Shown here: positions 57,737 through 58,699 of the stretch, one piece after another
How the letters are laid out: every line of letters starts with the position of its first letter
How positions within the stretch are numbered: position 1 is the stretch's first letter
Assembly (NCBI RefSeq): GCF_056746865.1
Contig: NZ_CM163382.1
Direction: 5' to 3' (one strand)
Length of the DNA stretch: 64,000 nucleotides
Notes under the pieces: model-generated
Told to the model about the DNA's origin: nothing
Database searches by the model: none
Seen by the model: the letters and a program-made list of their open reading frames with translations, nothing else
Position numbers and translations under genes: made by a program

Positions 57737-57759
57737 ATTAAGGATGTTGTAACTAAAGT
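57737..57759 (+). promoter_or_regulatory. terB: replication terminus site TerB (Tus-binding site) in the tus promoter region
   Basis: ATTAAGGATGTTGTAACTAAAGT contains the conserved Ter core ATGTTGTAACTA and G at position 6; it lies 10 bp upstream of the tus ATG. Confidence 0.8.
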
Positions 57760-57769
57760 GGTTAATATT

Positions 57770-58699
57770 ATGGCGCGTTACGATCTCGTAGACCGACTCA
57801 ACACTACCTTTCGCCAGATGGAACAAGAGCTGGCTGCATTTGCCGCTCATCTTGAGCAACACAAGCTATTGGTTGCCCGCGTGTTCTCTTTGCCGGAGGT
57901 AAAAAAAGAGGATGAGCATAATCCGCTTAATCGTATTGAGGTAAAGCAACATCTCGGCAACGACGCGCAGTCGCTGGCGTTGCGTCATTTCCGCCATTTA
58001 TTTATTCAACAACAGTCCGAAAATCGCAGCAGCAAGGCCGCTGTTCGTCTACCTGGCGTGTTGTGTTACCAGGTCGATAACCTTTCGCAAGCAGCGTTGG
58101 TCAGTCATATTCAGCACATCAATCAACTCAAGACTACGTTCGAGCATATCGTCACGGTTGAGTCAGAACTCCCCACAGCGGCGCGTTTTGAATGGGTGCA
58201 TCGTCATTTGCCGGGGCTGATCACCCTTAATGCTTACCGAACGCTCACTGTTCTGCACGACCCCGCCACTTTACGTTTTGGGTGGGCCAATAAACATATC
58301 ATTAAGAATTTGCATCGTGATGAAGTCCTGGCACAGCTGGAAAAAAGCCTGAAATCACCGCGCAGTGTCGCACCGTGGACGCGCGAGGAGTGGCAAAGAA
58401 AACTGGAGAGAGAGTATCAGGATATTGCTACCCTGCCACAGGACGCGAAGTTAAAAATCAAACGTCCGGTGAAGGTGCAGCCGATTGCCCGCGTCTGGTA
58501 CAAGGGAGATCAAAAACAAGTACAACACGCTTGCCCTACACCGCTTATTGCGCTGATTAATCGGGATAATGGCGCGGGCGTGCCGGACGTTGGGGAGTTG
58601 TTAAATTACGATGCCGACAATGTGCAACACCGTTATAAACCACAGGCGCAGCCGCTTCGTTTGATCATTCCACGGCTGCACCTGTATGTTGCAGATTAA
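57770..58699 (+). CDS. tus: DNA replication terminus site-binding protein Tus
   Basis: Start at [10 protein letters not shown] (309 aa); the ORF track begins at an upstream GTG. Confidence 0.95.

Follow-up and report, generated by a model that had tools for sequence, protein, structure and literature searches.

Which Ter site lies immediately upstream of tus in this Escherichia coli chromosome, and what is to be made of the two bases that distinguish it from its K-12 counterpart? The window analyzed, a 64,000-nt stretch of contig NZ_CM163382.1 (RefSeq assembly GCF_056746865.1), is E. coli terminus region, running from TerC to just past TerB and including the whole TerC–TerB interval. It is collinear with positions 1,607,373–1,690,489 of K-12 MG1655 at ~98% identity, with 1,192 SNPs in 62,171 aligned bases (1.9%). 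The element at 57737–57759 is the TerB of an E. coli chromosome. The reading argued for below, to which we assign a probability of roughly 0.95, is that a single site acting as replication fork barrier and as tus operator, with functionally neutral bases at positions 2 and 7 (T2/G7), accounts for the locus as a whole. The sequence, orthology, orientation and context of the site, the intact Tus encoded beside it, and the frequency of its form in the population are matters of direct observation, and nothing among the sequence, context and census results contradicts the TerB explanation. The features at and around the site are as follows.

56393–57694, + strand: rstB, the upstream gene, whose stop codon is 42 bp before TerB (open reading frame, and annotation of an identical strain).
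57709–57714, + strand: candidate –35-like element TGGTCA, 17 bp upstream of the –10 (by eye).
57729–57737, + strand: candidate extended –10 element TGcTATAAA, TGCTATAAA, whose last base is TerB position 1 (by eye).
57737–57759, + strand: TerB, 23-bp Tus-binding replication terminator, T2/G7 haplotype, ATTAAGGATGTTGTAACTAAAGT (alignment to K-12 TerB).
57742, + strand: G6 of TerB (read from the sequence).
57744–57755, + strand: Ter core, positions 8–19, ATGTTGTAACTA (identical in all seven haplotype sequences compared).
57756–57762, + strand: weak Shine-Dalgarno-like AAGTGGT, spanning the 3′ end of TerB (sequence).
57760–57769, + strand: 10-bp spacer between TerB and the tus ATG, GGTTAATATT (sequence).
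57770–58699, + strand: tus, encoding the DNA replication terminus site-binding protein, 309 amino acids (K-12 identity, PF05472, 1ECR/2I06).

The initial annotation of this stretch described a 23-bp Ter element with a conserved core and G6, 10 bp before the tus start codon. Both parts of the description are accurate: the conserved G6 (57742) and core positions (57744–57755) that mark a Ter site are present, the spacer occupies 57760–57769 and the ATG 57770–57772, and the span it gave, 57737–57772, is exactly the Ter 23-mer plus 10 bp plus the start codon. The check it proposed was also run. Alignment of window positions 57660–57800 to MG1655 puts the element where K-12 has TerB, between rstB and tus, ~10 bp before the tus start (in K-12, NC_000913.3 approx. 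1,684,226–1,684,248, upstream of tus b1610). The two sites have in common their locus, their strand relative to rstB and tus, the 10-bp gap to the ATG, and positions 1, 3–6, and 8–23; the –10 and –35 candidates are identical as well. MG1655 TerB reads AATAAGTATGTTGTAACTAAAGT, from which the window departs within the 23-mer by A2T and T7G only, for 21/23 identity (91%). These are the very two positions, and the only ones, at which a difference had been suspected.

Around the site, three more SNPs relative to K-12 (57697, 57724, 57726) lie in the 42 bp that separate TerB from the rstB stop codon, and one at 57691 is in the last codons of rstB; from 57744 to 57835 the window is identical to K-12. 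None of the intergenic SNPs is in the Ter core, G6, the –10 and –35 candidates, or the TerB–ATG spacer. The 75-bp rstB–tus intergenic region thus has five SNPs in all, and as many or more are found in 4.5% of 75-bp windows. The idea that this region is unusually divergent was rejected, the upper 4.5% being high but not exceptional for non-coding DNA.

It could be objected that this is a chance Ter-like sequence, a pseudo-Ter with no function. Such strings do occur here: with one mismatch allowed, the Ter consensus GNRNGTTGTAACNA has five matches in the window versus 1.95 expected, and the three extras are at chance level, for example 33330–33343 (– strand), which lacks G6, and 25009–25022 (– strand). 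The exact consensus behaves otherwise, with two matches in 64 kb versus 0.07 expected, located exactly at the TerC and TerB loci; and the K-12 TerB 23-mer, with up to three mismatches allowed, matches the window once (two mismatches) versus 0.00 expected in shuffles. The site is moreover orthologous to TerB, correctly oriented, and adjacent to tus. Between them, the MG1655 alignment and the shuffle-based match statistics refute the pseudo-Ter reading of 57737–57759, and its probability is negligible. One Ter-like 23-mer on the – strand at 33321–33343, CGTACAGATGTTGTAACCATTGT, which lies inside ynfE, opposite in orientation to TerB and TerC and identical in K-12, was considered as an opposing Ter site and rejected as a chance-level match with A at position 6 and C at 18.

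An intact cognate Tus is encoded directly downstream. The protein is identical to MG1655 Tus at 305 of 309 residues, matches PF05472 over its full length (457 bits), and aligns from residue 1 to 309 with the near-identical crystallized Tus (1ECR/2I06). At the nucleotide level tus has 30 SNPs relative to K-12 in 930 bp (3.2%, above the 1.9% window average), but only four amino acids are changed (I23A, K119Q, A221T, N225D), none of them at a residue known to line the C6 pocket or to contact DNA. Strain 118UI (RefSeq) is 100% identical to the window over 57400–58100, and there tus is annotated as starting at the ATG; rstB precedes it, and fumC follows in convergent orientation. An open reading frame start at a GTG (57758) was rejected as the tus start, because the ATG at 57770 is both the start annotated in 118UI and residue 1 of the crystallized 309-residue protein.

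If TerB is also the tus operator, a promoter should be found overlapping it. A consensus promoter scan of 57400–58900 returned no sigma-70 site, but a –10 had to end in T to be called, and the candidate TATAAA, with its final A, was missed for that reason. The promoter was instead assigned by eye and by conservation over seven haplotypes (described below): TGcTATAAA and TGGTCA are invariant across all seven, while the 17-bp spacer between them varies. Invariant elements with a variable spacer are the pattern expected of a real promoter, and the –35, –10, and start site proposed here are presented as candidates. Transcription beginning some 6–9 bases past the –10 would start at TerB positions 7–10 and give a leader of ~26 nt.

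With TerB overlapping both the candidate –10 and the expected start of the tus promoter, bound Tus would exclude RNA polymerase, and tus would repress itself. Promoter occlusion of this kind fits the sequence and the literature. Goodall et al. (2021, PMC8347550) describe terB as overlapping the tus promoter; in the account of Toft et al. (2021, PMC8707476), Tus autoregulates via TerB in its own promoter, and a 10-bp region separates TerB from tus. Both papers (PMC8347550, PMC8707476) cite Roecklein et al. (1991) for autoregulation and for TerB lying within the tus promoter, and a 2026 paper states again that Tus is autoregulated. The window appears to agree with the published autoregulation of tus through TerB, because the candidate extended –10 overlaps the site.

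The arrangement is not peculiar to E. coli. According to Toft et al. (PMC8707476), Edwardsiella tarda Ter1 and the vicinal Ter sites of other Enterobacterales lie just before the tus ATG with C6 conserved, as here, and a tus-adjacent Ter with conserved C6 is regarded as the ancestral arrangement. Those vicinal sites are only 74–83% identical to E. coli TerB, as against 91% (21/23) for the site in the window.

As a fork barrier, TerB should be oriented with the other barriers to the clockwise fork. The one other such site in the window lies near its start:

1783–1805, + strand: TerC, ACATAGGATGTTGTAACTAATAT, inner barrier to the clockwise fork (exact Ter consensus; MG1655 alignment).

This site corresponds in the alignment to MG1655 TerC, which is flanked by yneE and uxaB. 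With TerB it shares the core GGATGTTGTAACTA, including the G at position 7, as well as strand and the role of clockwise-fork barrier; unlike TerB, it differs at the outer positions 1–5 and 20–23, and it lies between yneE and uxaB rather than in a promoter. Relative to K-12, TerC has one SNP, at position 2 (T>C), and there is a 10-bp indel just downstream at ~1844. The TerC–TerB distance is 55,952 bp in the window instead of 75,069 bp in K-12, because the cryptic prophage Qin (K-12 1,632,277–1,652,745) is absent; it is cleanly missing at window ~26255–26273.

The position 1/C6 face of TerB is toward dif and TerC, on the same strand as the other clockwise-fork barriers. GC skew on the + strand stays below zero over almost all of the window, from which the + strand is taken to be the lagging strand, as expected beyond dif; and no dif sequence was found within three mismatches across the window, as expected for one that starts after dif. 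Both results fit a region beyond dif that the counter-clockwise fork usually replicates.

TerB, C, F, G, and J are described as the clockwise-fork cluster, with arrest via the C6 lock mechanism: when a fork unwinds the non-permissive face, C6, the complement of G6, flips into the Tus lock pocket (PMC8707476). Applied to this site, a counter-clockwise fork would arrive from the tus side, at the permissive face (position 23 end), and be let past by Tus–TerB; a clockwise fork that had escaped TerC would arrive from the rstB side (position 1/C6) and be arrested. Unwinding up to GC(6) would free C6 to dock in the Tus pocket, forming the Tus–Ter lock. What is presumed here, by extension from the literature on Ter sites, is that Tus binds, that the lock forms, that tus is autoregulated, and that changes at positions 1–5 and 7 are tolerated.

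There remain the two differences from K-12. The initial annotation allowed either strain variation or a sequencing or recall error as their source. Exact 36-mers (the equivalents of window positions 57731–57766) were used as megablast queries against 5,426 complete E. coli genomes; queries of this length separate the haplotypes, because megablast needs a 28-base exact word. Four forms were common:

A2/T7, the K-12 form: exact 36-mer in 2,336 genomes.
T2/G7, the window form: exact 36-mer in 1,255 genomes, among them many O157:H7 strains and NEBExpress, a B derivative.
A2/G7 (NC101, ATCC 11775): exact 36-mer in 798 genomes.
A2/G7 plus a spacer G>A substitution (AR_0086): exact 36-mer in 567 genomes.

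Of the 5,423 genomes in which the locus is present, 4,956 carry one of these four. As shares of the complete genomes, A2/T7 makes up ~43%, T2/G7 ~23%, and the A2/G7 forms at least 25% (at least 1,365 genomes, 798 + 567). In the O157:H7 genomes, NEBExpress, and the other T2/G7 carriers, TerB is identical to that of the window over 57731–57766, with nothing different within the 36-mer. In an alignment of seven haplotype sequences, positions 8–23 are invariant and, reading from the core, G is kept at position 6.

Two rare forms of the TerB region were also seen. One, in EC12, has a SNP in the spacer; in the other, found in the E. coli river isolate SB0258h1 (L006, 51–161), the outer positions are displaced by a 1-bp insertion (ATAAAGTATGTTG...). 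The promoter spacer of SB0258h1 is heavily diverged, but neither promoter candidate (–35 or –10) nor the Ter core is altered.

That A2T and T7G are sequencing, assembly, or recall errors, the true sequence being that of K-12 TerB, was a possibility raised in the initial annotation. MG1655 itself, however, reads at this locus just as that annotation had it, and 1,255 independent complete genomes contain an exact copy of the window 36-mer. The alignment and the census thus refute the error reading; no support for it was left after testing, and its probability is vanishingly small. Of the two origins first proposed, strain variation stands and error falls: the differences are genuine and widespread strain variation, and G at TerB position 7 is at least as common in E. 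coli as the K-12 T. The K-12 TerB 23-mer is one of at least four common natural haplotypes, and users of TerB oligonucleotides, or of the K-12 23-mer as a genome query, should take differences at positions 2 and 7 into account.

Variation of this type has been described before. Goodall et al. (2021, PMC8347550) compared the Ter sites of phylogroups A, B1, B2, D, and E, the last represented by an O157:H7 strain, and report variation of 1–2 bp, almost entirely at positions 1–5, 19–23, and 7. Citing Coskun-Ari and Hill (1997), they state that such variation has little effect on Tus binding, and that the base at position 7 is not contacted specifically in the bound structure or in the locked one, and change there is tolerated. 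The variant type seen in this TerB, and its presumed neutrality, are therefore already known (PMC8347550). A2T and T7G, at positions without base-specific Tus contacts, would be expected to be functionally neutral.

A functionally altered TerB is nonetheless conceivable, in which A2T and T7G measurably change how tightly Tus binds, how the lock forms, or how strong the tus promoter is; this would imply a different Tus level or arrest efficiency in this lineage. Both SNPs fall where operator and candidate promoter overlap: position 2 directly follows the –10 hexamer, and position 7, at about –1 relative to the expected start, is next to the lock base C6. The intergenic SNP density in the upper 4.5% of windows, discussed above, points the same way. 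Set against this, TerC has G7 in the window and in K-12 alike, and G7-bearing TerC is described as the most used terminator, forming a stable lock (PMC8707476). The TerB G7 forms, for their part, are at least as common as K-12 T7, a frequency that argues against a deleterious effect of G7. Given a naturally G7 TerC and such frequent G7 forms, altered promoter strength or lock kinetics is considered unlikely. There is a small chance that T2/G7 could reset the Tus autoregulatory set point, or the rate of lock formation, in about a quarter of E. coli genomes, O157:H7 and B strains included; were that so, the "textbook" K-12 TerB would represent the species imperfectly. On the preferred reading, a fork barrier and tus operator with neutral T2/G7, the site is a common natural haplotype of an element whose role and variability are already published, and the finding has little import beyond correct annotation.

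Elsewhere in the window, several other structural differences from K-12 were noted. Approximately 478 bp of K-12 (1,624,734–1,625,212, most of ydeJ) is missing at 19187–19190. At 4511–5008, between dgcF and yneG, ~498 bp is present that K-12 is without; the open reading frame at 3525–4943 (– strand) is 472 amino acids long versus 315 for annotated K-12 DgcF, which suggests that K-12 dgcF may be a truncated form. A complete IS2 (1,331 bp) is found at 15770–17100, flanked by a 5-bp target duplication, CTGGG, at 15765–15769 and 17101–17105. The insertion interrupts mgtS, a small-protein gene whose ATG is at 15762, just past its nucleotide 8.
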